Below are positions 5,415 to 55,520 of a stretch of DNA of 64,000 nucleotides, in pieces; the first letter of the stretch is position 1; every line of letters starts with the position of its first letter. The notes under the pieces are model-generated. The model saw only the letters and a list, made by a program, of their open reading frames with translations. It was not told where the DNA came from and searched no databases. The position numbers and the translations under genes are program-made. The stretch comes from Candidatus Moraniibacteriota bacterium (lineage in GTDB: Bacteria; Patescibacteriota; Minisyncoccia; Moranbacterales; UBA1568), in NCBI GenBank assembly GCA_052034935.1, contig JBPOIB010000009.1, forward strand, positions 2,357 to 66,356, written 5' to 3'.

Positions 5415-6683
5415 ATGAAAATTAAATTGTTCATTATCGCATTTGGGCTCGCGCTCTCCTTAGGAATTTTATCTCCTACGCAGGGTCTTTATGCCGCTTT
5501 GCCTGTACCACCTGTGGACAATCCAGCTGACTGCAACGCCCTCGGGGGACAATGCCAGGACGATCCTAACTGCTATCAGTATGCCGGGAATAAGCCACCA
5601 GGCAGCGTTGAATTTCTGGGTGTTTGCGATGGAGCTACTCAAAACAAGGCCTGCTGTGGTATCAAACCAATAGCAGCGGCTCCCGGAAGCGATCTCTACT
5701 GCACGAATACACTCAAAGGTAACTGCGTACAGAAAACGCAAACTTGTGGCAGTAAAGCGGTCAAGGTTGGCGACTGTACCACCGATACCGCGGGTGTGCA
5801 GCGCATCTGCTGCCAGACTCTCCCGGGTGCCCAAATCACCGGCCCCATGGTCGCACCATATAGTCTCCTCGAGAAGATTCCCGGTTCATCCAATACCGTC
5901 GGCAGCCTCAATACCTATCTCGAAGATATCTACCGCTTCGCTTTTTGGGCGGTCGGTATCGCAGTTGTCTTCATGCTCACCATCGGCGGTTTCATGTACC
6001 TGACTTCGGCGGGCAATACATCACGCCTCGGCACGGCGAAAACGATCATTTTCGACGCCTTCCTTGGCCTCATCCTCGCTCTCGTCGCTTGGCTATTCCT
6101 CAACCTCATCAATCCCAATCTGGTTGACTTGGCACTGCCAACCACCTCAGTCATTACCCCACCACCACCTCCGACTGATACCGGTGGAACATCCTCTACC
6201 CTCGCAGGAGTACTCAAGACAACACCCGGTGTTACCGTTAGTTCAGCTGGGGACTGCAAACTCGATGCGACCACACCCGTTTCACCCGACCTATCACTTC
6301 AGCAATCTGCTGATGGTGTGCCAGTAAACCATTGTCAGAAAGACTGCCCTTCGACTGGTTACTGCCTTGGGCAAACAACTTTGAGTGCAACCATGCTAAG
6401 TGCGCTCATCGAGGTCGCCAGCCTTTATCCGTTCACTATAACCAGCTTCACGGGTGGCAACCATAGCGGAAACAGCTCCCACTATTCTGGGCGAGCAGTC
6501 GACATCAAGCCTGCTGTTTCAGTTCCAAAGTCGGACTGGCCAAAGATTCAAACCTATCTCAGAAGTCAGGGCACAAATAAGGCGCGGCTTGTTATCTGTG
6601 ACATCTGGGATGCCGTCCAAAAAAAGAATGTTGGCATTAACTGTGACGACCCTCGCACTGACCATATTCATGCTGAGTGGTAG
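5415..6683 (+). CDS. secreted/membrane protein: signal peptide + two Cys-rich repeats + TrbC/VirB2-like pilin-type double-TM segment + C-terminal M15/LAS-type zinc peptidase domain
   Basis: N-terminal hydrophobic signal; repeated Cys patterns; hydrophobic pair YRFAFWAVGIAVVFMLTIGGFMYLTSAGN...IIFDAFLGLILALVAWLFLNLI; C-terminal SSHYSGRAVD (SxHxxGxAxD) and DHIH metal-ligand motifs. Confidence 0.5.
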   Translation: MKIKLFIIAFGLALSLGILSPTQGLYAALPVPPVDNPADCNALGGQCQDDPNCYQYAGNKPPGSVEFLGVCDGATQNKACCGIKPIAAAPGSDLYCTNTLKGNCVQKTQTCGSKAVKVGDCTTDTAGVQRICCQTLPGAQITGPMVAPYSLLEKIPGSSNTVGSLNTYLEDIYRFAFWAVGIAVVFMLTIGGFMYLTSAGNTSRLGTAKTIIFDAFLGLILALVAWLFLNLINPNLVDLALPTTSVITPPPPPTDTGGTSSTLAGVLKTTPGVTVSSAGDCKLDATTPVSPDLSLQQSADGVPVNHCQKDCPSTGYCLGQTTLSATMLSALIEVASLYPFTITSFTGGNHSGNSSHYSGRAVDIKPAVSVPKSDWPKIQTYLRSQGTNKARLVICDIWDAVQKKNVGINCDDPRTDHIHAEW

Positions 6684-14041: not shown

Positions 14042-14785
14042 TTACTTCTGGCTTACCAAGGCGTTTTTCGGTTGTTTTGTAAATATCCACTTCTGTTGCG
14101 CCCAGGAAAGGAGCGTCGATACGAACCAATACAGTGAGAGGGCAGCTGGGAACTGAAAGCTGAAGAAGAAAACGAGCGCTGGACCGAGATAGAGCATCTG
14201 CTTTCCCATTATAGCAGCCATATCTGGCATTTCGCCGTCTTTCTTTGGGGTAGCTGCTGTTTGGGGCAGTATCATTTTTGTCTGGAAGTACTGGGCGATT
14301 GCTGCAAGGGCACCGAGAAGCGGACTTGCCTTCAGCATATCGAGAATCCCGAATGCCATATACTTGATTTCTCCCGGATTTTCGACGAAGCCATAGAGGT
14401 CAGCCGCATTGATAATAAGCTTTTTCTCGGAAATATTCATAATCACGTGGTAGAACGTGATGAAAAAAACCAATTGTACGATGAGGGGGAGGCAGCCGGC
14501 AAAGGGGTTCACCTTATTCTCCTTATAGCACTCCATAGTGGCTTTCGTCTGCTTTTCCTTATCCCCCTTATAGCGTTCCTGAATTTCCTTGATTTTCGGC
14601 TGTATTTCCTGCATCCGCTTCTGTTGTTCAATCTGCATGCGGGACAGGGAGAGGAAGGCTCCCTTGATTACCAGTGTGGTCAGAATAATTGCAATACCGA
14701 AGTCTTGAATCGGCAGGTTGGCATAAAAAAATACCACGAGGTTATAGAGTGGCTGATATATGAACGCGTGAAAGACTTCAGTCAT
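14042..14785 (-). CDS. yidC: membrane protein insertase YidC (short form)
   Basis: YidC/Oxa1 TM core; rpmH-rnpA-yidC-jag synteny. Confidence 0.85.
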   Translation of the reverse strand: MTEVFHAFIYQPLYNLVVFFYANLPIQDFGIAIILTTLVIKGAFLSLSRMQIEQQKRMQEIQPKIKEIQERYKGDKEKQTKATMECYKENKVNPFAGCLPLIVQLVFFITFYHVIMNISEKKLIINAADLYGFVENPGEIKYMAFGILDMLKASPLLGALAAIAQYFQTKMILPQTAATPKKDGEMPDMAAIMGKQMLYLGPALVFFFSFQFPAALSLYWFVSTLLSWAQQKWIFTKQPKNALVSQK

Positions 14786-14787
14786 AG

Positions 14788-15135
14788 CTATTTTTTCTCA
14801 TTTTTAAGTCTCAAAACTAGCCCCCTTAATATCTGAGCTAACCCCTCATATGTCGGCCCCGAAGAGAACGGACGCTGGAAAAGAATAATTACCTCCGCTC
14901 CGAATGGGAGTTCGGCGTGCAACTCCCTCATTATCGCACTTCCTTTCCGCTTAAGGAAATGCCGTGAAACCGACCGAGGAAAGGTTTTTTGCTTAAACGC
15001 AAATCCGACCCGGGCCGGCCGATTGCCACCAAGTCGAAAAAAAAGAGCTATTTCTGAGCCAAAAATAGCCTTCCTTGATCGAAAAATGGATTCGAAGCTC
15101 TCTCTCCCTCCCAGGCGGAGGTTTTTTGGGAGCAT
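14788..15135 (-). CDS. rnpA: ribonuclease P protein component
   Basis: basic ~115-aa protein LPKNLRLGGRESFESIFRSRK; immediately downstream of rpmH; start ATG 15135. Confidence 0.75.
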   Translation of the reverse strand: MLPKNLRLGGRESFESIFRSRKAIFGSEIALFFRLGGNRPARVGFAFKQKTFPRSVSRHFLKRKGSAIMRELHAELPFGAEVIILFQRPFSSGPTYEGLAQILRGLVLRLKNEKK

Positions 15136-15139
15136 ACGC

Positions 15140-15280
15140 CTAAACGGAGAGTTTTTTTCTCCCTTGGCGACGACGGCGAGTAATGACGGCCTGGCCGCCC
15201 TTTTCACTCATTCGCTTCAGAAACCCGTGCCGACGGGCTCGACGGCGCTTTTTCGGCTGATAGGTGCGCTTTGTTGCCAT
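15140..15280 (-). CDS. rpmH: 50S ribosomal protein L34
   Basis: [24 protein letters not shown]...GRKKLSV matches L34 consensus; 46 aa. Confidence 0.9.
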
Positions 15281-15482
15281 AGTTACAGAAAAATATGTGT
15301 AGTCCAATTTTATTTGAAACAAGGGAAAAAGTCAATACAGCCACCCTTTTCACCCCTCATCACAAGTCCAGTAACCCAGAAAGATTAAAGTCTACAACTT
15401 TCCCACGCTTTTACAGAACCACTTTATACACCGAGTTTCCACATTTTATGCACGTTTTTGTATCGATAGAACGGGGTCTGCG

Positions 15483-15491
15483 TGATATAAT
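15483..15491 (+). promoter_or_regulatory. extended -10 box (TGaTATAAT) for dnaA
   Basis: TG-n-TATAAT at 15483-15491, ~20 nt upstream of dnaA ATG 15513. Confidence 0.4.
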
Positions 15492-15512
15492 CAGTTTCAC
15501 TTGTCTTTACTT

Positions 15513-16946
15513 ATGACTGATGAAGAGCTCTGGAAGGCGGCCCTGGGACAGATAGAACTTTCTCTCTCTCGGGCCAATTTCATTACCTGGTTCAAAAATA
15601 CAACTATTCTCTCTCGGTCTGATGGGCGAGTTGTTATTGGTGTGCCCAATGGGTTTGCAAAAGAGTGGTTAGAGAACAAATACAACCTCTACATCATCAA
15701 GGCTCTCAAGAGCCTTGATCCGAGTATTCAGGATATTAAGTGCTCTATCTCTCCCAGTAATCGCCAGGCCGTAGTAGCCACAGCACCAACAAAATCAATG
15801 GATGTCGCGCGCCCGGCAAGCCAAAATCAAACTACCCCACCCCCAGTACCAAATGGATTCTCTCGGAAACGGATTTCGGAAACACCCGTCACTAATCCTA
15901 ATAGTGGAGAACTTTTCGCGAGCAACCTCAATAAACGCTACACCTTCGAGAACTTCATCGTTGCAGAGAACAATGAGCTCGCTCGAGCCGCCTGTTTCGC
16001 TATTTCTCAGAACCTCGGACACCTCTACAACCCGCTTTTCATCTATGGCGGCGTCGGACTCGGCAAAACCCATCTCCTCCAAGCTCTCGGAAATGAAATC
16101 AATACGAAACATCCCGAAAAAAAGGTAAAATATATCACTTCCGAGCGATTTACAAGCGAACTCGTCGAATCAATCAAGAATCAGACGGTTGACCAGTTCA
16201 AAACAGCCTATGAGCACATTGATCTCCTCATCATCGATGACGTGCAGTTCCTTTCCGGACGCGAGAAAACCCAGAATGAATTTTTCCATATTTTCAACGC
16301 CCTCTATCAGCTCAATAAGCAGATTGTCATTTCAAGCGACCGAACGCCGAAATCCATCCCTACTCTTGAGGAGCGGCTCCGGTCCCGATTCGAAGGTGGA
16401 ATGATCGCTGATATCAGCAAACCAAGCCTCGAGACGCGCGTCGCTATTCTTCAGACCAAAGCCCAGGAAAAAAACATACCAATCGATCAGCCATCCATCC
16501 AATTCATCGCTGAGCATGTCAAAAATAATGTCCGGGAGCTCGAGGGGGCGCTTTCACGAGTCTTGGCCTATAGCGAATTCCAAAAAGTGCCCATTACCCT
16601 CCCACTTGTTCAAAAAGCACTCTCCGATATGATTATTCAGACAAAAAAATCAGTAAAACTTGATGATATTGTCCAAGTAGTCAGTGATTTTTATGGGATT
16701 GCTATTGAGGAGATGGTGAAGAAGGGCCGAAAGAAAGAAGTCGCCCACCCTCGCCAGATTGCCATGTATCTTCTCCGGACCGAGCTCGACACCCCCTTCT
16801 CAACGATCGGAGATTTTTTCGGTGGACGCGATCACACCACTGTTCTCCATGCTGTGGAAAAAGTCACCAAAACTAAAGAGTCTACTACTCGTGTCCGGGA
16901 AGAACTCCACTCGCTTAAGGAAAAACTCCAGGCAGCAGGTGTATAA
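15513..16946 (+). CDS. dnaA: chromosomal replication initiator protein DnaA
   Basis: Walker A GGVGLGKTHLL, AAA+ and C-terminal HTH; ORF-track start 15501 is TTG, first ATG at 15513. Confidence 0.95.
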   Translation: MTDEELWKAALGQIELSLSRANFITWFKNTTILSRSDGRVVIGVPNGFAKEWLENKYNLYIIKALKSLDPSIQDIKCSISPSNRQAVVATAPTKSMDVARPASQNQTTPPPVPNGFSRKRISETPVTNPNSGELFASNLNKRYTFENFIVAENNELARAACFAISQNLGHLYNPLFIYGGVGLGKTHLLQALGNEINTKHPEKKVKYITSERFTSELVESIKNQTVDQFKTAYEHIDLLIIDDVQFLSGREKTQNEFFHIFNALYQLNKQIVISSDRTPKSIPTLEERLRSRFEGGMIADISKPSLETRVAILQTKAQEKNIPIDQPSIQFIAEHVKNNVRELEGALSRVLAYSEFQKVPITLPLVQKALSDMIIQTKKSVKLDDIVQVVSDFYGIAIEEMVKKGRKKEVAHPRQIAMYLLRTELDTPFSTIGDFFGGRDHTTVLHAVEKVTKTKESTTRVREELHSLKEKLQAAGV

Positions 16947-17159
16947 GGCCTGTATAACTCTGTATTTCCTCGTGCTCGTTTGTGGACAAACACCTTCTTT
17001 ATGGATAATCCATCAGTTCCACACCTACTCCGTACAATCCACTCCACAAACTTATTTTTATAAAAACCTTTATTAGAGCCTCAACACCGTCATTTCCACA
17101 TATACAGTACGCTAATAACAATAATTTTAATAAATAACCTTACTTAATTACTTACCAAT
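16947..17159. promoter_or_regulatory. candidate oriC (dnaA-dnaN spacer with DnaA-box-like 9-mers and AT-rich unwinding stretch)
   Basis: TGTGGACAA, TATGGATAA, TTTCCACAT, CTCCACAAA (8/9 matches to TTATCCACA/TGTGGATAA) plus AT-rich runs 17060-17159. Confidence 0.55.
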
Positions 17160-18284
17160 ATGAAACTCTCATGTACTCAGGAAAATCTTCGGATAGCACT
17201 CTCATCACTCGAACGTATCGTTGGAAAACAAAGTACTCTGCCGATACTAAGCAATATCCTGCTTGAAACAGAGCGGGGTCAACTTCGGCTTTCTGCGACG
17301 AATCTTGAAATCGGGGTTATTACCTCGATTGGTGCAAAAATCGAAGCAGAGGGGAAAATAACCGTACCGGCGAAATTGCTCATAAATTTCATCCAGAATC
17401 TGGCTGGTGATCAGATTGTCGGAATTGAACAAATAGGAACGCAGGTTGTGCTCGAAAGCGGAAATTACCGGGTGAAAATTAATGGTCTTGATAGTAAGGA
17501 TTTTCCCATCATCCCGGAAAAGTCGGGTGGTCATACCTTTACTATTCAGTCGGAACTACTCCGTCAGGGACTCCAGCGAACACTCTTCTGTGTCTCGCTT
17601 AATGAAAGCCGTCCTGAATTGACAGGTGTGTTGATGAATATTAAAGAAGGGGATGTTTTTCTGGTCGCGACAGATAGTTTTCGTCTAGCCGAGTGGCATT
17701 CCCAAGGGGCGGCTCAGTGGGAAGGTGAGGAAATGACTGAGTTGTCTGTCATTATTCCGAACTATACCCTTCAGGAGGTATTGCGCGTCATGTCTCAGCC
17801 GACAGAAGGAGTTCAGGTAACGCTCGAAGAAAATCAGGTCTTCTTCGAATTAGGCAGTACGCGCATTGTTTCTCGTCTCATAAACGGCCGTTTTCCTGAA
17901 TACCAGGCGATTTTGCCGAAGCAATATACAATGGATGTAACCGTCACTCAGGAAGATCTTCAACGTGCACTCAAAATGGCGACGTCCTTCTCGGTCTATA
18001 GTTCCGGCGAAGTCACTTTTCAGCTGAATTCCGAAGAAGGACGACTTGAAATTGCTTCCCAATCCCAGGGTATCGGAGAACAGATAGCCAAAATCCCTTT
18101 TACAGGAACCGTAACGGAACCGCTTCAGATCGTATTCAGCCCGAGATATATCCTCGAAGGAGTCTCAGCACAACGGGGTGAAGAAATCATCCTTTCGATG
18201 AATTCATCAAGCACACCAGTTCGGATATCATCAGATGCTGAACGGGCAAGCTATCTTTACATCGTGATGCCGATTCGGAAATAA
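17160..18284 (+). CDS. dnaN: DNA polymerase III beta sliding clamp
   Basis: N-terminal MKLSCTQENLRIALSSLERIV...LSNILLE; 374 aa; follows dnaA. Confidence 0.9.
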   Translation: MKLSCTQENLRIALSSLERIVGKQSTLPILSNILLETERGQLRLSATNLEIGVITSIGAKIEAEGKITVPAKLLINFIQNLAGDQIVGIEQIGTQVVLESGNYRVKINGLDSKDFPIIPEKSGGHTFTIQSELLRQGLQRTLFCVSLNESRPELTGVLMNIKEGDVFLVATDSFRLAEWHSQGAAQWEGEEMTELSVIIPNYTLQEVLRVMSQPTEGVQVTLEENQVFFELGSTRIVSRLINGRFPEYQAILPKQYTMDVTVTQEDLQRALKMATSFSVYSSGEVTFQLNSEEGRLEIASQSQGIGEQIAKIPFTGTVTEPLQIVFSPRYILEGVSAQRGEEIILSMNSSSTPVRISSDAERASYLYIVMPIRK

Positions 18285-32548: not shown

Positions 32549-34366
32549 CTATGCACGAGGTGGTTCGGCCGGGCCGTCAGTGGTTTCTTCCTGAACGGTT
32601 GCCTCTCCGACACCGCCTGCATTTTCATCATCAAGCTCCTTGTCGTCGAAGGTCGCGTAGAGCTCGGCGAGACTATCTTCTTTGCCCGATGCACTCCAGA
32701 CCTCATCCATCGTCGTGTAGCCCTCGAGCACTTTGATGAGTCCATCCTGAGCCATGGTAAGCATACCCTCTTTGACCGCACAGTCGAAGATTTCTTTCTC
32801 AGTCGCCATCTCACCAATCAGATCACGCACGGTTTGAGTCATTGTGAGGACTTCGAAGATACCCTTGCGTCCATGATAGCCGCTGAAGTTGCACTCGATG
32901 CAGCCTTTCGGCCGATAGAGAACCTCGATTTTCGGAAACCTCTTCGCTTTTGCTGCTTCCGGAATCATAGCGAGCAATTTCTGGATGGCTACGACTGTGC
33001 TCTCAGCCGGGAGGTATGGTTCTTTGCAGTGTTCACAGAGGATACGTACCAGACGCTGCGCGATGATGGTGTTCATCGCTGAAGCGATGAGTGATGGTTT
33101 CACACCGAGCTCGAGGAGCCGCGAGACCGTTGCGACGGCGTTATTCGTGTGCAGGGTTGAGAGGACAAGATGGCCGGTCAGCGATGCGGATACGGCGACA
33201 TCCGCCGTCTCATCATCGCGGATTTCGCCGACGAGGACGACATCGGGATCTTGCCGAACAATAGCCCGTAAGGCGGCCGCGAAAGTGTAGTTACGGTCTT
33301 TGGAGACTTCAGTCTGGACGATGCCCGCGAGATTGTATTCGATTGGATCTTCGACCGTAATAACTTTGATTGATGGATTGTTAATTTTGTTGATGAGGCT
33401 GTAGAGCGTCGTCGTTTTTCCGGATCCGGTCGGACCGGTGTTCAGGATCATGCCGTTCGGACGCTCAATCGCTTTCTGAACTTCTTCAAAAGCTTTTCCG
33501 TAGATGCCGAGATTCGTCATATCGACATTGACGTCCTCGCTATTCAGGAGACGCATGTTGATGTTCTCGCCGTGGTTTCCGGGAATGAGCGAAATACGGA
33601 TATCGATGCGGCTGTCGCCGTTCTCTATTGAGAAATGCCCATCCTGCGCTCGATCGCGGACATTGATGCGCATACCACCGAGCATCTTGATACGTGAGAG
33701 AGCGAGCTGATACATATGCTGCGGCAAGTCTCCGATGTCCTGGAGTAGTCCGTCGATGCGGTAACGAAGTCTCGCGGTTTTCTCACCCGGCTCGATATGC
33801 ACATCACTCCCGCGCATCTTTGACGCACCGGCAAGAATGATCTCGATGATTTGTGAGGTAGAGACGGTGTTGTCGTCTTTGCCAAGGGCCAAGAGATCGC
33901 CGAAATTCTTTTCGAAGTGTTCGAGATCGTCGCCTTTGAGCGAGACGCGGAGAATATCGAGACTTTCGAGGAGCGGCTTGTTTGAGTAACTCGCCCAGAC
34001 CTTCTCGAGGGACTGGCGTGACACGACCGAAAGTGTCATCCGCCAGGCGTTCTTATTCGAGAGCTTCTGAAGGTAGTCGAGCGCTTCAGGATCCTCTGGA
34101 TTCTCGAGGCCGACGTAGACGTGGGCGCCGTTCTTTCGGAAGAGCGCGCAGTGAAACCGCTCAGCATCTTCTTTCGGCAGCAGTGCGACATCTTTCGGAT
34201 CAGCTGGAAAGAGATGGAGATCGAGGTAGGGGAGTCCGAGCTTCTCGCCGAGAGCATGGGCGCGGTCTTCCATGGACTGTTCGCGGAGCTTCTTCAACGT
34301 ATCTTCGGCTCGCTGGGTTTTTTCGTTGACGGCCGTCGGGATGATGCGCCTGCTGACTTTGGGCAT
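32549..34366 (-). CDS. type II/IV secretion-system ATPase (GspE/PilB family) with N-terminal T2SSE_N domain
   Basis: Walker A GPTGSGKTTTLYS; Asp box, His box; N-terminal GspE_N-like region; 605 aa. Confidence 0.85.
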   Translation of the reverse strand: MPKVSRRIIPTAVNEKTQRAEDTLKKLREQSMEDRAHALGEKLGLPYLDLHLFPADPKDVALLPKEDAERFHCALFRKNGAHVYVGLENPEDPEALDYLQKLSNKNAWRMTLSVVSRQSLEKVWASYSNKPLLESLDILRVSLKGDDLEHFEKNFGDLLALGKDDNTVSTSQIIEIILAGASKMRGSDVHIEPGEKTARLRYRIDGLLQDIGDLPQHMYQLALSRIKMLGGMRINVRDRAQDGHFSIENGDSRIDIRISLIPGNHGENINMRLLNSEDVNVDMTNLGIYGKAFEEVQKAIERPNGMILNTGPTGSGKTTTLYSLINKINNPSIKVITVEDPIEYNLAGIVQTEVSKDRNYTFAAALRAIVRQDPDVVLVGEIRDDETADVAVSASLTGHLVLSTLHTNNAVATVSRLLELGVKPSLIASAMNTIIAQRLVRILCEHCKEPYLPAESTVVAIQKLLAMIPEAAKAKRFPKIEVLYRPKGCIECNFSGYHGRKGIFEVLTMTQTVRDLIGEMATEKEIFDCAVKEGMLTMAQDGLIKVLEGYTTMDEVWSASGKEDSLAELYATFDDKELDDENAGGVGEATVQEETTDGPAEPPRA

Positions 34367-43001: not shown

Positions 43002-43574
43002 ATGATTCGAGCTCTCAAAGGAACGGTTGGTTCCATCCATCCTCAATATGCCATCATCTTTGTTGGCGGCATTGGCTACCAGGTCTATGTCTCGGCGTAT
43101 ACCTCAGGCAAGCTCGCTGGCATGAGTGGTGTGGAACTTCATATCCATACCCATGTCAGGGAGGATCAATTTAATCTCTTCGGTTTCATCACCGAGGATG
43201 AGCTTTCGATGTTTGAGCTCCTCATCTCCGTCTCAGGTGTGGGGCCGAAGGCCGCGCTCGGCATCTTGGCCATCGCGGAACCGAAGACGATTCGAACCGC
43301 CATCGTGAACAAGGATCCGTCAATCCTCACTCGAGTCTCGGGTGTCGGGAAGAAAACGGCAGAAAAAGTCATTGTCGAACTGCAGAATAAGGTTTCAGCC
43401 GCTGACGTGACGGATCAAGCCGGTGCTTTGGCCGAACAGGAATCGATTGAGGCGCTGACCGCTCTCGGCTACACGGTTTCTGAAGCGCGCGATGCGCTCA
43501 AGAGTGTCCCGATCGATATCACGAGTGTCGGGGAGCGGCTCAAGCAGGCGCTCAAAAGCCTCGGCAAGAAATAA
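43002..43574 (+). CDS. ruvA: Holliday junction DNA helicase RuvA
   Basis: MIRALKGTV...GIGYQVYVS OB-fold N-terminus, HhH motifs, C-terminal domain III. Confidence 0.9.
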   Translation: MIRALKGTVGSIHPQYAIIFVGGIGYQVYVSAYTSGKLAGMSGVELHIHTHVREDQFNLFGFITEDELSMFELLISVSGVGPKAALGILAIAEPKTIRTAIVNKDPSILTRVSGVGKKTAEKVIVELQNKVSAADVTDQAGALAEQESIEALTALGYTVSEARDALKSVPIDITSVGERLKQALKSLGKK

Positions 43575-43578
43575 CCTT

Positions 43579-44586
43579 GTGGCCTCACCATCCTTCCTCA
43601 CCACTCATGCGCCAGACGGTGGCCTCCTCCAATCGGAGGAATGGGCGAAGCTTCAGACTGCTTCGGGTCGCGAGGCGATACCTTTTCAGGGGACTGGTTT
43701 CGAAGGAGTTGCCTTTCGACAGGTGTCGCACTTCTTTGGTCGCTACCTTTTTATTCCGCGAGGACCGGTTACTGACAGTGTGAATCTCGATGCTGAGGTC
43801 TTGAAGAAAGAGCTCATGCGTATCGCTCTGGAACGTCGGACACACTGGTTGCGGGTCGAGCCTCAAACGGAGGCCTGTCTTCAGTTGCTCCGGCAGGTCT
43901 TTGGTGAAGACAAAATCGTTCCAGCACCGCGCGATATCAATCCACGCGAGATATTTTTCGTCTCGCTCGAGGGCGAGGTATTGATGTGGTTCGAACGAAT
44001 GAAGCCAAAGACGCGGTACAATGTCCGACTGGCCGAGAAGCACGGTGTGGCCATTCGTTTCTCGCGAACGACGGAAGATATTGAGGTATTCATCGACCTC
44101 ATCTATGCCACTACGAATCGCAAAGCCATCGCGCCGCATCCGAAGAAATACTACCGAAGATTTTTTACGACAATGCCAGAAGAAATGTGTACGATTGCAC
44201 TGGCCGAACATGAAGGCCAGGTAATCGCCGCAAGTCTACTCGTTTTCTTTGGCGGCACAGCGTACTATCTCCATGGTGGATCGGCGGGGATGAAACGAGA
44301 ACTGATGGCGCCGTTTCTTCTCCACTTCAAAAGCATGGAAGAAGCAAAGTGCCGTGGCTGTTCGCGTTATGACTTTGGTGGTGTTCGAATTCTTTCCAAG
44401 AAGGGACCAGCCGATTCAGATTGGGACGGCATTACCCGTTTCAAACAAGGCTTCGATCCGAAAGCCGAGACACTCCTTTTTCCGGGCACTTATGATATTA
44501 TCCTGTCGCCATTCCGCTATGCGCTCTATCGACACTTGCGGCGAGCTACCGGTGTACGACGGATTATGAGGAGCTGGTTCAAATAG
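43579..44586 (+). CDS. FemAB-family peptidoglycan interpeptide-bridge aminoacyltransferase
   Basis: FemAB/GNAT-like fold; probable GTG start at 43579 just after ruvA stop (ORF-track start 43492 overlaps ruvA). Confidence 0.6.
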   Translation: MASPSFLTTHAPDGGLLQSEEWAKLQTASGREAIPFQGTGFEGVAFRQVSHFFGRYLFIPRGPVTDSVNLDAEVLKKELMRIALERRTHWLRVEPQTEACLQLLRQVFGEDKIVPAPRDINPREIFFVSLEGEVLMWFERMKPKTRYNVRLAEKHGVAIRFSRTTEDIEVFIDLIYATTNRKAIAPHPKKYYRRFFTTMPEEMCTIALAEHEGQVIAASLLVFFGGTAYYLHGGSAGMKRELMAPFLLHFKSMEEAKCRGCSRYDFGGVRILSKKGPADSDWDGITRFKQGFDPKAETLLFPGTYDIILSPFRYALYRHLRRATGVRRIMRSWFK

Positions 44587-49886: not shown

Positions 49887-49943
49887 CCGTCTCCGCACTC
49901 TTTAGAATCCTTTCTTGTCCTGATTCGCTCCCCTTCGCATCCT

Positions 49944-50378
49944 ATGGCCTGGTCAACATTTGGACAGAAGAAAAAGCCGACCACACTCAAAGCGGGGAAA
50001 AGCGGTCGTTATCAGTTCACGCTCCATTCCGAGTACAAGATGCGCGAGTATCATCTGTCCCGCCAGCGAGTGATCCGTATCATCCGCGCGCCGCATCGGA
50101 CTGAAGTGGGTATCGTCGAGAACACGGTCGCGGTCATGCAGCCGGCTTCGACGAAACGCGTCGCCGACAAAGAAACCTGGTCTCAGGAGCTTTGGGTCAT
50201 GTACAAAGTCATGGGCCAAGGAAAGCTGACAAAGTCAAAACTCGAGAAGGCACTCAATCAGTCCGAACTCAAGATCATCTCGGCCTGGCGGTACCCGGGT
50301 GTTTCACCGGAGCGTGACCCCATCCCGGCCGAGATTTTGCAGGAGATAGAGGCCCGAGGTGAAGAAGAAAGAGAGTAG
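49944..50378 (+). CDS. hypothetical protein (144 aa)
   Basis: no recognisable motif; segment RVIRIIRAPHRTE faintly RelE/BrnT-like. Confidence 0.3.
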   Translation: MAWSTFGQKKKPTTLKAGKSGRYQFTLHSEYKMREYHLSRQRVIRIIRAPHRTEVGIVENTVAVMQPASTKRVADKETWSQELWVMYKVMGQGKLTKSKLEKALNQSELKIISAWRYPGVSPERDPIPAEILQEIEARGEEERE

Positions 50379-50514
50379 TTTTGTCATGTAGATTAGTCGG
50401 GTTTACGAACTGGCGCACGGATGGTATATTCGGGATGCCTCAACCGTTGGGACACGCCTGTCTCTTTGGGTAAACCGAGGCAATTTGGGCACAAAGTGCC
50501 TGGGAGAAAGTACC

Positions 50515-50724
50515 ATGGGTTGGTTCTCTACCCCCACCAACGCCGACCATCACAACGATGGCCAGCGTGACGCATCGGATGGCAAGCCGTCCACGCCGCC
50601 GAACAGCGGTTTGGCCGGTGCGGCTGTGCGTTTCGTCCTCGGATCGAGCGATACGGTCCGCGAGATGAACGCCGAAGACCGTGCCTACGAGAAGGGCTAC
50701 AACAATGCCGAGGGCCAGAAGTAG
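50515..50724 (+). CDS. hypothetical small protein (69 aa)
   Basis: SD-like GGGAGA upstream of ATG 50515. Confidence 0.25.
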   Translation: MGWFSTPTNADHHNDGQRDASDGKPSTPPNSGLAGAAVRFVLGSSDTVREMNAEDRAYEKGYNNAEGQK

Positions 50725-50790
50725 GCGTCCTGACGCCCCTTCGAAAGACTGAACCCTACGGCAGCACAGAGAAGTGCTAGGAGGAATCGA

Positions 50791-50883
50791 ATGAAAACAA
50801 CCAAGGAAGAGATTTTCCGAGAGTGGCCCAATGGCGCCCTCGGCTTTTATTTTTCGGCGTTGCTGGAGTTTGTGGCTTGTTAG
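50791..50883 (+). CDS. putative 30-aa peptide
   Basis: strong SD AGGAGG 6 nt before ATG; MKTTKEEIFREWPNGALGFYFSALLEFVAC; followed by terminator. Confidence 0.2.
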   Translation: MKTTKEEIFREWPNGALGFYFSALLEFVAC

Positions 50884-50907
50884 AGCCAATAAATGAATAT
50901 TGTATTA

Positions 50908-50936
50908 AGAAAAGGCTGCGATAAGCCTTTTCTTTT
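50908..50936 (+). terminator. intrinsic terminator
   Basis: AAAGGCT/AGCCTTT stem, 6-nt loop, TTTTCTTTTG. Confidence 0.7.
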
Positions 50937-50970
50937 GGCTTGAATGAGCCATAAACAGCATACTTTATCA

Positions 50971-50999
50971 TTGACGGATATGCTGTTTTGGTGTATACT
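50971..50999 (+). promoter_or_regulatory. sigma70-like promoter TTGACG-17 nt-TATACT (with upstream TG)
   Basis: TTGACG 50971-50976, 17-nt spacer, gTGTATACT 50991-50999. Confidence 0.55.
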
Positions 51000-51054
51000 G
51001 TACTTTCAGTTCCTTAAACGTTTCTTTCACCACCACCCACGAAAGGGGTCTCTC

Positions 51055-51405
51055 GTGACTGTGCAAATCACCCTCGCGATCATGTGCTTCGTCTTCGGCG
51101 CCGTGATCGGCCTCGGCTTCCTCGACCGTTACAGCAACCTCCAACTTCGCAAGATGCCGGGGTCGGTGAAGCAGAAGTGGGCGGCGACCATTCTGGTCGA
51201 AATCATCTTCTTGTTTCCCTATCTGGGACTGCTCTGGATGATGTATGACCCGAAGACCCCACCCCTTGGCAATGTCGGTATGACAGGTTCCTTCATCGCC
51301 ATGGTGATGCTCGCCATGTTCTGCCAGACTGGCGCATGCATGGGCATCTACGCCTTCCTTCACCGGTGGACGTACCAAGAAAACCGCCCAACCTCGGCCG
51401 TCTAG
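51055..51405 (+). CDS. small polytopic membrane protein (116 aa)
   Basis: GTG start 6 nt after GAAAGGGG; 3-4 hydrophobic helices; shares 14-nt pre-start motif ACCCACGAAAGGGG with next ORF. Confidence 0.35.
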   Translation: MTVQITLAIMCFVFGAVIGLGFLDRYSNLQLRKMPGSVKQKWAATILVEIIFLFPYLGLLWMMYDPKTPPLGNVGMTGSFIAMVMLAMFCQTGACMGIYAFLHRWTYQENRPTSAV

Positions 51406-51416
51406 GCCACTTGGCG

Positions 51417-51507
51417 GTTGGGGGATGAATGTCACTGACAAACATCTCCCCTCAACTGGATTTCGAATGAAGCAATTTATTCGAAATCCTGAGAGTTACC
51501 AGTAGCA
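51417..51507 (+). repeat. double-hairpin intergenic repeat, copy 1
   Basis: hairpin A GGGGATG...CATCTCCCC, then CTCAACT, hairpin B GGATTTCGAAT-10 nt-ATTCGAAATCC (11-bp perfect stem), then TGAGAGTTACCAGTAG; ~90% identical to copy 2 over core. Confidence 0.75.
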
Positions 51508-51560
51508 CCTTCCAACCAGTCGGGCCTATCGCCCATCTACACCCACGAAAGGGGAAAAAC

Positions 51561-51896
51561 ATGCCGGCCTATTACAAACTGGCGAACCAGCGCTACTTCC
51601 GGATCGGCGCTCTCGTAGTTGCCATACTTACCAGCATCCTCCTTCTCTGGTTCCTCATCCATCTTTCGAACAAGTGGGCGATGGAGCAGGGAATGACCCG
51701 TGATGCCGCGCTTCGCGAAATCGGATGCATTTCGGAGGAGTTGCACACGTATCACTCGGTGATGCTCGGCCAGGCGGCAGCAACCATCTGGCGCTGTGAC
51801 GGCAAACTGGTCTATGACCAATTCGCCAATGTACTGGTCCGAGCAAACGAAGATGGCGATCCCACCTACTGGCAGAAGCTTCAGGCCAAGAAGTAG
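51561..51896 (+). CDS. small single-TM membrane protein (111 aa)
   Basis: ATG preceded by ACCCACGAAAGGGG motif; N-terminal TM. Confidence 0.35.
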   Translation: MPAYYKLANQRYFRIGALVVAILTSILLLWFLIHLSNKWAMEQGMTRDAALREIGCISEELHTYHSVMLGQAAATIWRCDGKLVYDQFANVLVRANEDGDPTYWQKLQAKK

Positions 51897-51900
51897 CGTC

Positions 51901-51990
51901 ATCGGGAGATGCAATTACAAAGATAACAACATCTCCCCTCAACTGGATTTCGAATGAAGCGATTTATTCGAAATCCTGAGAGTCTCAGTA
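51901..51990 (+). repeat. double-hairpin intergenic repeat, copy 2
   Basis: hairpin A GGGAGATG-18 nt-CATCTCCC; hairpin B GGATTTCGAAT-10 nt-ATTCGAAATCC; trailing TGAGAGTCTCAGTAG. Confidence 0.75.
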
Positions 51991-52038
51991 GTAAACTTTA
52001 CAACCCAATCCTCTCTTCTTTGGCTGGAGACCATCATC

Positions 52039-52944
52039 ATGAACGTGTTCATTCGCACCTCCATCGTTCTTGTTGCCATTGGCCTGTCGGCCTGTGGTAG
52101 TATCCCGCCCGACCCCTACGGCTATGGTGGCTATCACCGTCCAGTCGTGGTCCCTGACCGCCTGGGCTATCAGGTGGAAACCATGCCAGGCGGCCGCTCC
52201 TACGTGGCGGTGCTGAATCCTGATCGCACCTGGACCGTCGATACTGACCGTCCGCTTGCCCCGGGTGTCGCTGCGCCCACCGGCTTCCTGACCGCCTACC
52301 GGGGTCGTGACCAACAATGGCGCATCAACGGCAATGCGGTCCCTGACCGCCTAGTGGTGATGAATCGAGTCCCACAAGGGTTCGATGGTGTCTACCAGCC
52401 CCAGGCTGGTCTGCAGTCGGGCGTTGGTGTCTCGTCTGTCGCTGGCATCAGCGCAGAATCAGCCGCCATGTTGCTCCGTGAGCTCGAAACCGGCGGCAAT
52501 CCGTGCACGGCCAAGAGCCACAACTCGCGCTTGACGGTTGGCAGCGTCATTGGCGGTCTCGTCGGTGTGGTGCTGACGGGCGATCTCCGCGGCCTTGCCT
52601 TTGGTGCCCTCATCGGCGCTTCGGGCGGCTCCAGCGAAGCCAAGTGGAACTGCATGTCGTACACGAGGACCCGCATGGCGCTGCTGTCGGTCATCGACGC
52701 CGCTAAAGCCCGTTGTGAGAGCACGCTCTCGCAACGCGAAGTCAATGGTGTGCTCAGCACTACGAAGACGAAGGAGTGCAAGGCCATCGAGGCCATGGAC
52801 TTCGAACGTATCGGCCAAGGCCAAGCGCAGGCAACGGCGGCCGCTCCGACTCCCGCACCGGCCGCGCCGGTACCGCGTCGCGTTGCCCCAGCTGCCGCTC
52901 GCTCCTGGGATGGGACCGGCACGCCCCCGAGCTGGGTGAAGTGA
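52039..52944 (+). CDS. lipoprotein with glycine-zipper segment and Ala/Pro-rich C-terminus
   Basis: lipobox LSAC after signal peptide; GSVIGGLVGVVLTGDLRGLAFGALIGASGG glycine zipper; locally GC-rich. Confidence 0.5.
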   Translation: MNVFIRTSIVLVAIGLSACGSIPPDPYGYGGYHRPVVVPDRLGYQVETMPGGRSYVAVLNPDRTWTVDTDRPLAPGVAAPTGFLTAYRGRDQQWRINGNAVPDRLVVMNRVPQGFDGVYQPQAGLQSGVGVSSVAGISAESAAMLLRELETGGNPCTAKSHNSRLTVGSVIGGLVGVVLTGDLRGLAFGALIGASGGSSEAKWNCMSYTRTRMALLSVIDAAKARCESTLSQREVNGVLSTTKTKECKAIEAMDFERIGQGQAQATAAAPTPAPAAPVPRRVAPAAARSWDGTGTPPSWVK

Positions 52945-53077
52945 TCCGCTGATCACACCACCGGCCCAATCAACGGCGATTATCAGTACCCCTGACAATC
53001 GTCGTTTTCTTTTTCTCAATTCTTGCAAGAAGAACTTTGTTATACTGAGGGTATTCACTGCATTCGCAATCATACAC

Positions 53078-54502
53078 ATGAAACATACAAAAATTGTCGC
53101 GACGCTCGGACCGGTATCGGGAAACGCAGAAATGATACTTGCCCTCGCTACGGCCGGAGTGAATGTTTTTCGGCTCAATTTTTCGCATGGCGATACGGCT
53201 TGGCGTCTCGCTGCGATCAAAGCAATCCGCGAGACTTCCAGCCGACTCGAACGGCCGATTGCGATCCTCGCCGACCTTCAGGGTCCGCGCATCCGAACCG
53301 AAGTAACCTTTCCGACTGATATCAAAAAAGGCTTTTCCCTCAGGGTCTGTGATCTAGCTGAGCGGCATCGATTTTCGTCCGAGGAGCCAGTCGTTGCACT
53401 CGATACACCAGGAATTCTTGAACGGGTCGCGGTCGGCCATCGAATCCTCATCGAAGACGGACTCATTGGCCTCTCAGTGACGAAAATCGATGGAACAATC
53501 ATCGAGGCACAGGCGGAGAATGATGGCACGATTAAGAATCGCAAAGGGGTTATCCTCCCTGATACGCCGCTTGAACTCCCGGTTCTTTCAGCGAAAGACA
53601 AAGAGGATCTCGCGTTCATTGTCGAACAGGGGATAGAGTATCTCGGTCTTTCTTTTGTCGGTTCGGTAGCCGATATCGAGAGCGTGAAAAAAGAGATGGA
53701 AACACTTGTCGGCCCGGATATGAAGAAGCCCCTCATTTGTTCAAAGATTGAGCGCAAGGTCGCGCTCGAGCATCTCAGCGACATTATTCGAGCAAGCGAC
53801 TCAGTCATGGTGGCGCGTGGCGATCTCGGCATCGAGATGCCGGAAAGCGAAATCGCGATTTTGCAGAAACAGATCATCGCCGAGAGTCTTCGTGAGATGC
53901 GCCCGGTCATTGTCGCGACGCAGATGATGCAAAGTATGGTGAATAACCCGCGCCCGACCCGCGCCGAGGTATCCGATGTCTCGAACGCAGTCATCGATCA
54001 TGCTGATGCGGTGATGCTGTCGGAGGAGACGGCAGCTGGGAAGTACCCGGTTGAGACAGTGGCAACCATGCGGGAAATCATTGAGAAGACCGAAGAGTCG
54101 CCCTTCGATGACCTCTACCAGGCGCTCGCGCTCAATCATCAGTCCGAATACGCGGTGATGGTTCGGAGTGTGTACGAGCTCTCGCAGAGCTTCAAAGTAA
54201 AGGCCGTGCTTGTGCTTTCGGTGAGTGGCTTCACGGCGCGTCTCCTTTCACATTTCCGGCCGGATGCGCGGCTCTTGGTGGCGACGAGTTCGGTCGAGAC
54301 GTGGCGTGAGCTCGCTCTGGTTTGGGGAGTAGAATCGTATCTTTTTGAAGGTGATCAGAATTTCGATACATTGATTGAGCGTTTTATCGAGCACCTCAAG
54401 AAAAAAGAAGTCCTGACTACCGATGATCAAGTGGCGATTTTCTACGGCCGGACACCGGCGCAGGCGACCATGAAACTTGTCGGTATCCGGACTATCCACT
54501 GA
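53078..54502 (+). CDS. pyk: pyruvate kinase
   Basis: MKHTKIVATLGPVS...FRLNFSHGD and downstream PK motifs; 474 aa. Confidence 0.9.
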   Translation: MKHTKIVATLGPVSGNAEMILALATAGVNVFRLNFSHGDTAWRLAAIKAIRETSSRLERPIAILADLQGPRIRTEVTFPTDIKKGFSLRVCDLAERHRFSSEEPVVALDTPGILERVAVGHRILIEDGLIGLSVTKIDGTIIEAQAENDGTIKNRKGVILPDTPLELPVLSAKDKEDLAFIVEQGIEYLGLSFVGSVADIESVKKEMETLVGPDMKKPLICSKIERKVALEHLSDIIRASDSVMVARGDLGIEMPESEIAILQKQIIAESLREMRPVIVATQMMQSMVNNPRPTRAEVSDVSNAVIDHADAVMLSEETAAGKYPVETVATMREIIEKTEESPFDDLYQALALNHQSEYAVMVRSVYELSQSFKVKAVLVLSVSGFTARLLSHFRPDARLLVATSSVETWRELALVWGVESYLFEGDQNFDTLIERFIEHLKKKEVLTTDDQVAIFYGRTPAQATMKLVGIRTIH

Positions 54503-55287: not shown

Positions 55288-55374
55288 GGAAAGGTGGCCG
55301 AGTGGTTGAAGGCACCGCTCTCGAAAAGCGGCATACCCGAAAGGGTATCGAGAGTTCGAATCTCTCCCTTTCCG
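55288..55374 (+). tRNA. tRNA-Ser (anticodon CGA), class II with long variable arm
   Basis: acceptor GGAAAGG/CCTTTCC, D-arm GCC-GAGTGGTTGAA-GGC, anticodon loop CUCGAAA, variable stem ATACCC-GAAA-GGGTAT, T-arm GAGAG-TTCGAAT-CTCTC, discriminator G; CCA not encoded. Confidence 0.85.
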
Positions 55375-55520
55375 CAGTGAAAGAAGCAGTCGAAGAAAAG
55401 GAGAGGATACCTGACAGCCCTTTCGTGAGGTGCTTATAGGTAGCCCTAGGGAAATTTTCAAAACAGGGTATCCGAAATGGCTTGCTCGTCCGGGTACGGC
55501 TCGAAAAAAGTGCATTAGCT

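Follow-up and report, generated by a model that had tools for sequence, protein, structure and literature searches.

A two-hairpin intercistronic element and the exchange of a single small open reading frame at the htpX-pyk locus of an uncultured Moranbacterales lineage

The stretch of DNA analysed here (64 kb, hereafter the window; Candidatus Moraniibacteriota bacterium, assembly GCA_052034935.1, contig JBPOIB010000009.1) carries, between the housekeeping genes htpX and pyk, an operon in which two small open reading frames (ORFs) are each followed by a copy of a ~90-nt element with two hairpins. The operon was examined within these 64 kb of its own genome and ~79 kb of related contigs, 143 kb overall. 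The element is an undescribed structured intercistronic RNA motif; it accompanies the exchange of a single small ORF, which resembles a minimal mobile element, and both are confined to a rare uncultured wastewater lineage. The element is repeated, is restricted to one locus and keeps its structure with covariation, the unit to which it belongs has been duplicated as a module, and the ORF within that unit is exchanged.

Results

An operon of two small ORFs and a lipoprotein gene

ORF A, ORF B and the lipoprotein gene form one operon with the elements inside it, as indicated by a promoter at 50971-50999 and hairpin/T-run terminators at 50910-50936 and 52972-53017. All of its features lie on the forward strand, in the order promoter, leader with ribosome-binding-site (RBS) motif, small orphan ORF, element, lipoprotein gene and terminator. 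The unit upstream is closed by the intrinsic terminator at 50910-50936 (hairpin AAAAGGCT/AGCCTTTT plus T-run; ViennaRNA fold, -16.8 kcal/mol), which is kept in related loci L005, L030, L032, L033, L034 and L024. A consensus scan confirmed the σ70-like promoter of the operon, TTGACG-17-TATACT at 50971-50999 (10/12 consensus matches), which had been proposed from the letters of the DNA alone (the sequence-only reading); its −35 and −10 hexamers are kept at all related loci. The leader/RBS motif of the first ORF slot, CACCCACGAAAGGGG (51034-51048), is repeated identically ahead of ORF B, as the same reading had noted, and measures 15 nt instead of the 14 nt given there. It occurs exactly twice in the window (51034 and 51540; 0.1 expected), each time 6 nt before a start codon; it is restricted, in the window and in the related contigs, to positions ahead of slot ORFs; and it marks the left breakpoint of the ORF exchange described below.

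The three ORFs are present where they had been predicted. ORF A (slot 1, 51055-51405) encodes a 116-aa orphan protein that by eye appears hydrophobic and membrane-spanning, and starts with GTG in the window and with ATG in relatives; ORF B (slot 2, 51561-51896) encodes 111 aa, in which a small C-terminal domain follows a long N-terminal helix; and the final gene (52039-52944) encodes a 301-aa lipoprotein with the lipobox LSAC. The last gene is GC-rich as first described (GC 64%), whereas the Gly-zipper label once attached to its product corresponds only to sub-threshold Pfam matches (E 0.2-0.9, residues 167-199). Element copy 1 (51417-51506) lies between ORF A and a segment that combines the tail of unit 1 with the duplicated leader of slot 2 (51507-51560; mini-hairpin GGGCCTATCGCCC at 51522-51534, second RBS motif at 51540-51554), and copy 2 (51901-51992) lies between ORF B and the lipoprotein gene. 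Each small ORF is indeed followed by an element; the claim that it begins within 10 nt of the stop codon holds for copy 2 (7 nt from stop codon to hairpin A) and fails for copy 1 (14 nt), the range across loci being 6-14 nt. The distance from the element to the next start codon is 43-54 nt at all loci. The operon closes with a terminator at 52972-53017 (stem ACGGCGATT/AATCGTCGT plus TTTTCTTTTT; fold, -16.4 kcal/mol), after which stands a promoter-like site of pyk (53023-53050; TTGCAA-17-TATACT).

Sequence and fold of the element

A repeat finder delimits a core of 56 nt (51441-51496 and 51928-51983) with an identity of 98% between the two copies. Over the whole ~90 nt, the identity is 83% (77/93), not the ~90% previously stated, because the distal part of hairpin A differs entirely between the copies. 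Hairpin A (P1; 51420-51450 in copy 1, and 51904-51937 with a beta-type distal loop in copy 2) has an 8-bp stem, GGGRGATG/CATCTCCC. Hairpin B (P3; 51458-51489 and 51945-51976) has the perfect 11-bp stem that had been predicted, in both copies; the stem reaches 14 bp when it is extended with one G·U pair and is capped by the GNRA tetraloops GCAA and GCGA. A short helix, P2 (51451-51454/51490-51493 in copy 1), is formed between CTCA of the linker and TGAG 3' of hairpin B, so that P2 and P3 together make a helix of ~18 bp, and the stretches CUCAACU and GAGAGU are conserved as single strands. The UGAG 3' of hairpin B (51490-51505 and 51977-51991) can pair either with CUCA, as in P2, or within a downstream CUCAG hairpin; the minimum-energy fold takes the alternative hairpin in L032 and L034, which may reflect a switch or a coincidence.

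The hairpin B pattern, with up to 3 mismatches, has exactly 2 sites in 64 kb against 0 expected; the sense-strand folds have z-scores of -5.5 (copy 1) and -5.2 (copy 2) relative to shuffled sequence; and, across all copies, fold energies lie between -24 and -45 kcal/mol, with -33 to -45 kcal/mol for the element plus short flanks, and the z-scores between -2.5 and -6.3. The elements have 40-45% GC and lie between genes with a high GC content at third codon positions (GC3). No T-run is present at either copy, the sequence 3' of P3 being UGAGAGU, and the terminator scan finds no terminator-like site there. The identity of an intrinsic terminator was rejected for this reason, as the ends of the operon have the canonical hairpin and T-run that the elements lack. 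The suggestion of a repeated processing or termination signal agrees with the sense-strand structure and its covariation.

Both hairpins are maintained by compensatory changes

A covariance model (R1) was built from eight element copies, and nine distinct related copies were aligned. The model scores copy 1 at 99.4 bits and copy 2 at 93.6 bits, and copy 1 is also backed by its single-sequence fold and by pair counts. Across the nine copies, 96.4% of the positions in 26 pairs are paired, a value that falls to 32-51% once the 3' partners are shifted by 1-3 columns. Two-sided changes are found at four pairs: position 3 of P1 (G-C to A-U in L030), position 3 of P3 (A-U to G-C in L034), position 13 of P3 (A-U to C-G in L030 and L034) and position 12 of P3 (G·U, G-C and A-U states). 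In addition, G·U occupies six cells across four pairs, and the antisense equivalents of these are A·C mismatches. Every orthologue folded singly yields P1 and P3; the distal part of P1 is of three unrelated sequence types, all of which form an inner stem of 3-4 bp; and the loop of P3 is usually GNRA. The folding and covariation analysis proposed with the sequence-only reading has thus borne out its two hairpins, which are held in nine copies with four compensatory pairs. The compensatory pairs together with the sense-strand G·U pairs indicate a structured RNA within the operon transcript, and the pattern favours a nucleic acid that folds as the sense strand, the operon mRNA being the simplest candidate.

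The operon is an old resident between htpX and pyk

Relatives could be reached only via proteins, which led to 14 useful loci in ENA and Logan assemblies; one comes from a winery wastewater lagoon (SRR10961543; PMC7387413). Each locus shows part or the whole of one gene order: htpX, a gene here called U (144-157 aa), terminator, promoter, leader/RBS, small orphan ORF, element, lipoprotein gene and pyk. Both flanks are spanned in L023-L026, and one flank each is seen in L030 and in L031+L021. A single element is present in L023-L028, L030, L032, L033 and L034; L006 is arranged like the window, with an ORF, an element, ORF B and then the beginning of a second element; and orthologues of the lipoprotein gene lie 3' of the element in L021, L022, L030, L032 and L034. 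Wherever a contig holds both flanks, the operon sits between htpX and pyk, including in relatives whose housekeeping genes are saturated at synonymous sites. This synteny across saturated relatives shows an old resident of the lineage and no recent island, and the proposed accessory island between htpX and pyk is withdrawn: only the contents of the slots and a ~500-bp segment upstream (see below) vary.

Four independent Logan contigs break inside the element (the end of L005, the starts of L021 and L022, and the end of L031), which would be expected of a repeat of ≥31 nt with two or more copies in those genomes. The sample that yielded L021 and L031 probably also has two elements.

The slot ORF is exchanged within conserved flanks

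Three alleles of the slot-1 ORF (A, A' and A'') share 24-27% amino-acid identity and are set in flanks with 91-99% identity. The window and L031 are effectively one species, as htpX is 97.7% and U 98.6% identical between them, and yet the window ORF A and the 121-aa A' of L031 have 24% amino-acid identity. Likewise, L030 and L034 are 91% identical in U, 93% in the lipoprotein gene and 100% in the spacer, with 26% amino-acid identity between ORF A in one of them and A'' in the other; here the RBS and the 3' arm of P1 are the sites of the breakpoints.

The converse is seen between the window and L024: ORF A is 92% identical in nucleotide sequence (86% at third positions; synonymous substitutions per synonymous site, dS, 0.24), whereas htpX is 72% identical (dS 3.8), pyk 65% (dS saturated) and U, the upstream 144-aa gene, 61-64% (also saturated). 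Identity between the two steps from ~55% to >85% at the RBS motif (~51025) and drops at the stop codon. The arrangement of the L024 type recurs in 8 contigs, of which 7 are shown to come from independent samples, and is therefore no assembly chimera. Among different pairs, the left breakpoints spread over ~90 nt, and some genomes have the unit of ORF B while others lack it. The cassette-like behaviour that had been suspected is thereby substantiated: the slot-1 ORF is swapped in near-identical backgrounds and common to divergent ones, and the ORF B unit is optional. As judged from these comparisons of sequences, the slot ORF has been exchanged between strains and species like a cassette.

The second unit is a duplicated slot

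The spacer ahead of ORF B aligns over ~40 nt with the long-type slot leaders of L006 and L024, the stem of the small hairpin in the aligned leader having changed from GGGC/GCCC to GGCC/GGCC, and ~30 nt 3' of copy 1 match the sequence 3' of copy 2. From the leader alignment and the matching tails it follows that the repeated unit consists of leader/RBS, ORF, element and tail, i.e. of a duplicated slot. By this alignment, the second unit of the window (leader, ORF B and element) is read as a copy of the slot that now holds the unrelated ORF B. The single element of L032 is a hybrid, with a 5' half as in window copy 1 and a 3' half and tail nearly as in copy 2, which is the product expected of a direct-repeat crossover that deletes ORF B.

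The element is restricted to one locus

No third copy was found by R1 in the window (filters off) or in the 143 kb that include all related contigs. A scan for hairpin B with the pattern GGATTTCGAAT-N6-14-ATTCGAAATCC returned 4 matches in GTDB species genomes, 14 in JGI metagenomes and 0 in viral contigs, none of them real: all the GTDB and JGI matches were TTCGAAAT-type simple repeats or unrelated palindromes without flanking CTCAACT/TGAGAGT. A blastn search with the element against phage and plasmid records gave no match. Rfam 15 at gathering thresholds matched only a tRNA-Ser in the window and nothing at the elements, and a permissive Rfam scan (E ≤5) of 50880-53090 gave two chance-level matches only, off the elements. 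Counting copies thus contradicts a dispersed repeat, in that the element is confined to one locus; the copies at that locus in relatives were recovered via proteins.

Several other identities were considered for the element and rejected. A tRNA-like punctuation mark would require a tRNA-like match, and the region has none; a DNA uptake sequence does not agree with only 2 copies in 64 kb; a dif/Xer-type core site or a palindromic operator does not agree with a palindrome centre that varies in length and sequence while it stays self-complementary, nor with asymmetric G·U states; and the promoter scan shows no antisense promoter within the element.

The sequence-only reading had also compared the element to integron attC sites. 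The Pfam analysis covered 56 long ORFs of the window (5 from the stretch of 47.0-56.4 kb and 51 others from across the window), none of which has a Phage_integrase, resolvase or transposase domain. With no integrase there, with two hairpins, no AAC/GTT pair and wobble pairs on the sense strand, the integron/attC identity is not upheld, and the window is ordinary chromosome.

The slot proteins are orphans under constraint

No significant family emerged from Pfam, PADLOC or PHROGs for the products of ORF A and ORF B, the lipoprotein, the 144-aa and 69-aa proteins encoded upstream, the alleles A' and A'' or L024's lipoprotein of 196 aa, and a PDB sequence search with the lipoprotein gave no match. 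An ORF A profile run against 1.84 billion cluster representatives has two matches only, its own family and one remote relative, and among 5.8 billion just one cluster is found for ORF B besides its own. The slot-1 alleles are remote homologues (A and A'', profile E = 8e-4; A and A', pairwise E = 9e-4); between ORF B and ORF A no similarity is detectable. AlphaFold models were too poor to use (predicted local distance difference test, pLDDT, 61 for ORF B and 38 for the lipoprotein).

The ratio of nonsynonymous to synonymous substitution rates (dN/dS) is 0.18-0.27 for ORF A, 0.16-0.27 for all slot ORFs and 0.03-0.05 for housekeeping genes; for ORF B and its sole homologue, in L006, it is 0.19 at 82% amino-acid identity. 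The slot ORFs are accordingly genuine coding genes under a constraint weaker than that on housekeeping genes. They also differ in composition, which supports the sequence-only reading on this point: GC3 is 0.71-0.80 in the slot ORFs and lipoprotein gene of the window as compared to 0.56-0.64 in its housekeeping genes, and when L024 (10001-11086) is taken together with the window the slot ORFs and lipoprotein genes span 0.65-0.87, the housekeeping genes of L024 having 0.41-0.56. Such raised GC3 is compatible with a foreign origin, with frequent recombination or with GC-biased conversion at a recombination hot spot. The lipoprotein 3' of the element is also of unequal length, 196 aa in the L024 type (L024 10496-11086) as against 301 aa in the window, and where the two align their amino-acid identity is only 26%; the final gene of the operon is thus highly variable as well.

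Neighbouring features

A segment of ~500 bp directly upstream of the operon (50379-50936) has its own promoter-like site (50402-50430), an ORF of 69 aa (50515-50724; GC3 0.77) and the terminator at 50910-50936. The segment is present in the window, L005 and L031 and absent in L030, L032, L033, L034 and L024; it constitutes a second small promoter-ORF-terminator indel within the htpX-pyk interval. Of the two tiny upstream ORFs that had been listed, the one of 69 aa is kept in relatives; the one of 30 aa (50791-50883) is interrupted in two related contigs by a change of TGG to TAG (L005 and L031) and is therefore probably no gene.

Downstream of pyk, the window has a tRNA-Ser(CGA) gene (55288-55375). 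In L023/L024 (13546-15138), a gene for a large serine recombinase (Resolvase, Recombinase and Zn_ribbon_recom domains) overlaps the 3' end of this tRNA, followed in L023 by helix-turn-helix (HTH) and EamA genes; this region looks like an element integrated at tRNA-Ser that is missing from the window. Elsewhere in the window (14042-18284), the plus-strand genes dnaA-dnaN stand opposite minus-strand rnpA-yidC, and the cumulative GC skew is lowest at ~17-18 kb, from which we conclude that the window holds the region of the chromosomal replication origin. No rRNA is found within the window. The gene content (5415-6683, 32549-34366 and 43492-44586) includes T4SS_pilin (PF18895), PilB, FemAB, DUF3048 and LemA-DUF2207, with a ComM-like gene in L024 (1279-2793), and hints at a Patescibacteria-like organism whose cell wall is of Gram-positive type and which may be naturally transformable.

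Discussion

Our results suggest an explanation in which the element is a structured RNA module specific to one locus, the slot ORFs are exchanged by homologous recombination, and the RNA serves in processing or stability; for this combination as a whole, our confidence is about evenly balanced. The recombination was probably homologous rather than site-specific: the leader and the element could act as homology arms for exchange of the slot ORF, and crossovers between element copies would delete or add the ORF B unit. The role of the RNA is probably that of a processing or stabilization signal. In such a mechanism, endonucleolytic cleavage would leave a stable 3' stem-loop that protects the upstream segment with the small ORF; expression of the small ORF would thereby be uncoupled from that of the lipoprotein gene, and the element would set the relative levels of both.

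Several points weigh against this explanation. The function of the RNA is deduced from its position and structure. The covariation comes from nine related sequences, whose relatedness inflates the shuffle figures, and 2-13 of 500 shuffles attain the observed covariation values; in L024 and L033 the stem of P3 contains internal mismatches; P2, at 4 bp only, is in competition with the UGAG/CUCAG hairpin, the minimum-energy choice in two orthologues; and the identity of the element between lineages (73-89%) is not above that of neighbouring coding DNA. Regarding the exchange, several related loci are short Logan contigs of mixed communities, in which strain-switching assembly at conserved segments is possible for single-contig cases such as L034, and further copies or a recombinase could lie outside the 64-kb window and ~79 kb of related contigs.

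Other explanations account for part of the same evidence. The element could be a site that acts as DNA, attC-like, at which an unlinked recombinase captures, stacks and excises small-ORF cassettes in a non-canonical integron-like system. Tandem RBS-ORF-element units with the unrelated ORFs A and B behind one promoter, exchange breakpoints at unit borders and an ORF B unit that is gained or missing by genome would all be expected of such a system; RCTCAAC in 5/9 copies fits the RYYYAAC half of the attC R box (PMC5027507), and the same structure could form in single-stranded DNA. However, no tyrosine or serine recombinase is found by Pfam among the 56 long window ORFs; no conserved GTT stands opposite AAC, GAGAGTT alternating with GAGAGTC; and in place of one imperfect hairpin whose central spacer is unpaired and which has extrahelical bases, the element has two separate hairpins. 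Its wobbles and its ACU bulge moreover lie on the top (sense) strand, whereas attC folds on the bottom strand (PMC5027507), the left breakpoints are scattered over ~90 nt, and there are at most two units per locus at a single locus; we consider this system improbable. A related proposal takes the leader/RBS block and the two-hairpin element as the ends of a new minimal gene cassette, an integrase-free analogue of the integron, in which small ORFs would be captured, stacked and swapped behind a fixed promoter, even across species, and in which the agent would be either host homologous recombination or an unlinked, undescribed recombinase that recognizes the folded element; this proposal, too, we hold to be a long shot. 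Still further from the evidence is a dispersed mobile repeat family, of the kind of repetitive extragenic palindromes and bacterial interspersed mosaic elements (REP/BIME), miniature inverted-repeat transposable elements (MITE/Correia-like) or IS200/IS605-type palindrome-associated sequences. The element is a short structured intergenic direct repeat that flanks an ORF and at which Logan assemblies break, and yet neither the window nor the related contigs contain an extra copy even when filters are switched off, terminal inverted repeats and target duplications are lacking, the window ORFs submitted to Pfam encode no RAYT, Y1 transposase or TnpB, and nothing similar appears in the public collections scanned, which together make such a family extremely unlikely.

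Two further explanations concern whether the structure has a role and which gene it serves. The element might be a regulatory leader or attenuator for the gene downstream, i.e. a switch responsive to a protein, a small RNA or a ligand, or a factor-dependent partial terminator. The constant 43-54 nt to the next start codon, the two mutually exclusive pairings of UGAG (P2 or the CUCAG hairpin) and the conservation of single-stranded CUCAACU and GAGAGU would suit this role; but the two downstream genes are unrelated and differ in RBS context, window copy 1 lacks the alternative hairpin, which is weak in L024 and L033, a T-run that could bring about termination is missing, as is any Rfam match even at E ≤5, and the element lies nearer to the upstream stop codon (6-14 nt) and was duplicated together with an upstream-type unit. 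A regulatory leader is thus conceivable and, in our judgement, rather unlikely. Alternatively, the repeat could be a functionless by-product of a recent segmental duplication whose similarity has been kept by gene conversion, with incidental hairpins. Two adjacent copies only, with a core that is 98% identical within the window as compared to 73-89% among orthologous copies, are what a recent duplication or conversion would give. Nevertheless, the position of the element is kept in lineages in which htpX, pyk and the upstream gene are saturated at synonymous sites, both stems are maintained via compensatory and wobble changes, and three unrelated distal sequences of P1 fold alike, so that the absence of any function appears doubtful to us.

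The locus has a bearing on how small genes move. A gene of 350 bp is movable between bacteria whose housekeeping genes have diverged to saturation, with breakpoints at the RBS and just past the stop codon, the smallest scale that is useful, and the conserved leader and the structured RNA jointly amount to a natural socket for an ORF. The compact two-hairpin motif, with its clear covariation, is absent from Rfam. The small orphan protein and the lipoprotein form a fast-evolving pair that probably resides at the cell surface and is likely to experience diversifying selection.

The closest precedent for the exchange is found in the minimal mobile elements (MMEs) of Neisseria, reportedly described by Saunders and Snyder in 2002 and by Snyder et al. 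in 2007. Like these, the locus has conserved chromosomal genes on either side (htpX, U, the slot operon and pyk), contents that vary by strain, no mobility genes in the window and an exchange that probably runs by homologous recombination in conserved flanks; moreover, the ancestry of the cassette is decoupled from that of the flanks (dS of 0.24 for ORF A vs. >3 for htpX). An MME is defined as a site between conserved genes that holds differing cassettes and has no mobility genes of its own (PMC3082526). Breakpoints in conserved non-coding blocks and hybrid copies of the element are compatible with a mechanism of this type. The locus differs from the MMEs of Neisseria in four respects: what is exchanged is one ORF of ~350 bp; short conserved non-coding blocks (the leader/RBS and the element), instead of the flanking genes, would be the homology arms; the three slot-1 alleles are very remote homologues, not unrelated genes; and units can be stacked in tandem. 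In addition, the host is uncultured and only possibly transformable.

The locus resembles integron cassettes in its repeats, which are highly similar within an array, and in contents that vary by strain; as for promoterless small ORFs stacked with a structured repeat behind one promoter, the window has two unrelated ORFs so arranged, relatives have one unit, and no array exceeds two. The attC site is one imperfect hairpin with AAC/GTT (RYYYAAC ... GTTRRRY), whose central spacer is unpaired and whose extrahelical bases lie on the bottom strand (PMC5027507). In contrast to integron cassettes, including integrase-less attC clusters, the operon has no IntI in the window and no AAC/GTT R box; CTCAAC is present, but only its CTCA is paired (with TGAG), and the structure is favoured on the sense strand; and each unit has its own conserved RBS leader, with one or two units at one syntenic locus.

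For the RNA itself, the intercistronic stem-loops of selective RNA processing and stabilization, which set the relative abundance of upstream operon segments (PMC10667835), and the Correia elements, which RNase III cleaves or which are protected (PMC2649163), offer the nearest comparison. As in processing and stabilizing stem-loops, stable sense-strand hairpins lie between cistrons, are repeated after successive ORFs and have no T-run, and the ~18 bp of P2 and P3 are near the size of an RNase III substrate. The REP hairpins of malE-malF and the RNase III sites of the early genes of phage T7 act comparably. Unlike REP and Correia elements, which are dispersed in hundreds of copies, the element is found at one locus; and unlike the processing stem-loops, it is built to a fixed plan of two hairpins and single-stranded linkers that are conserved.

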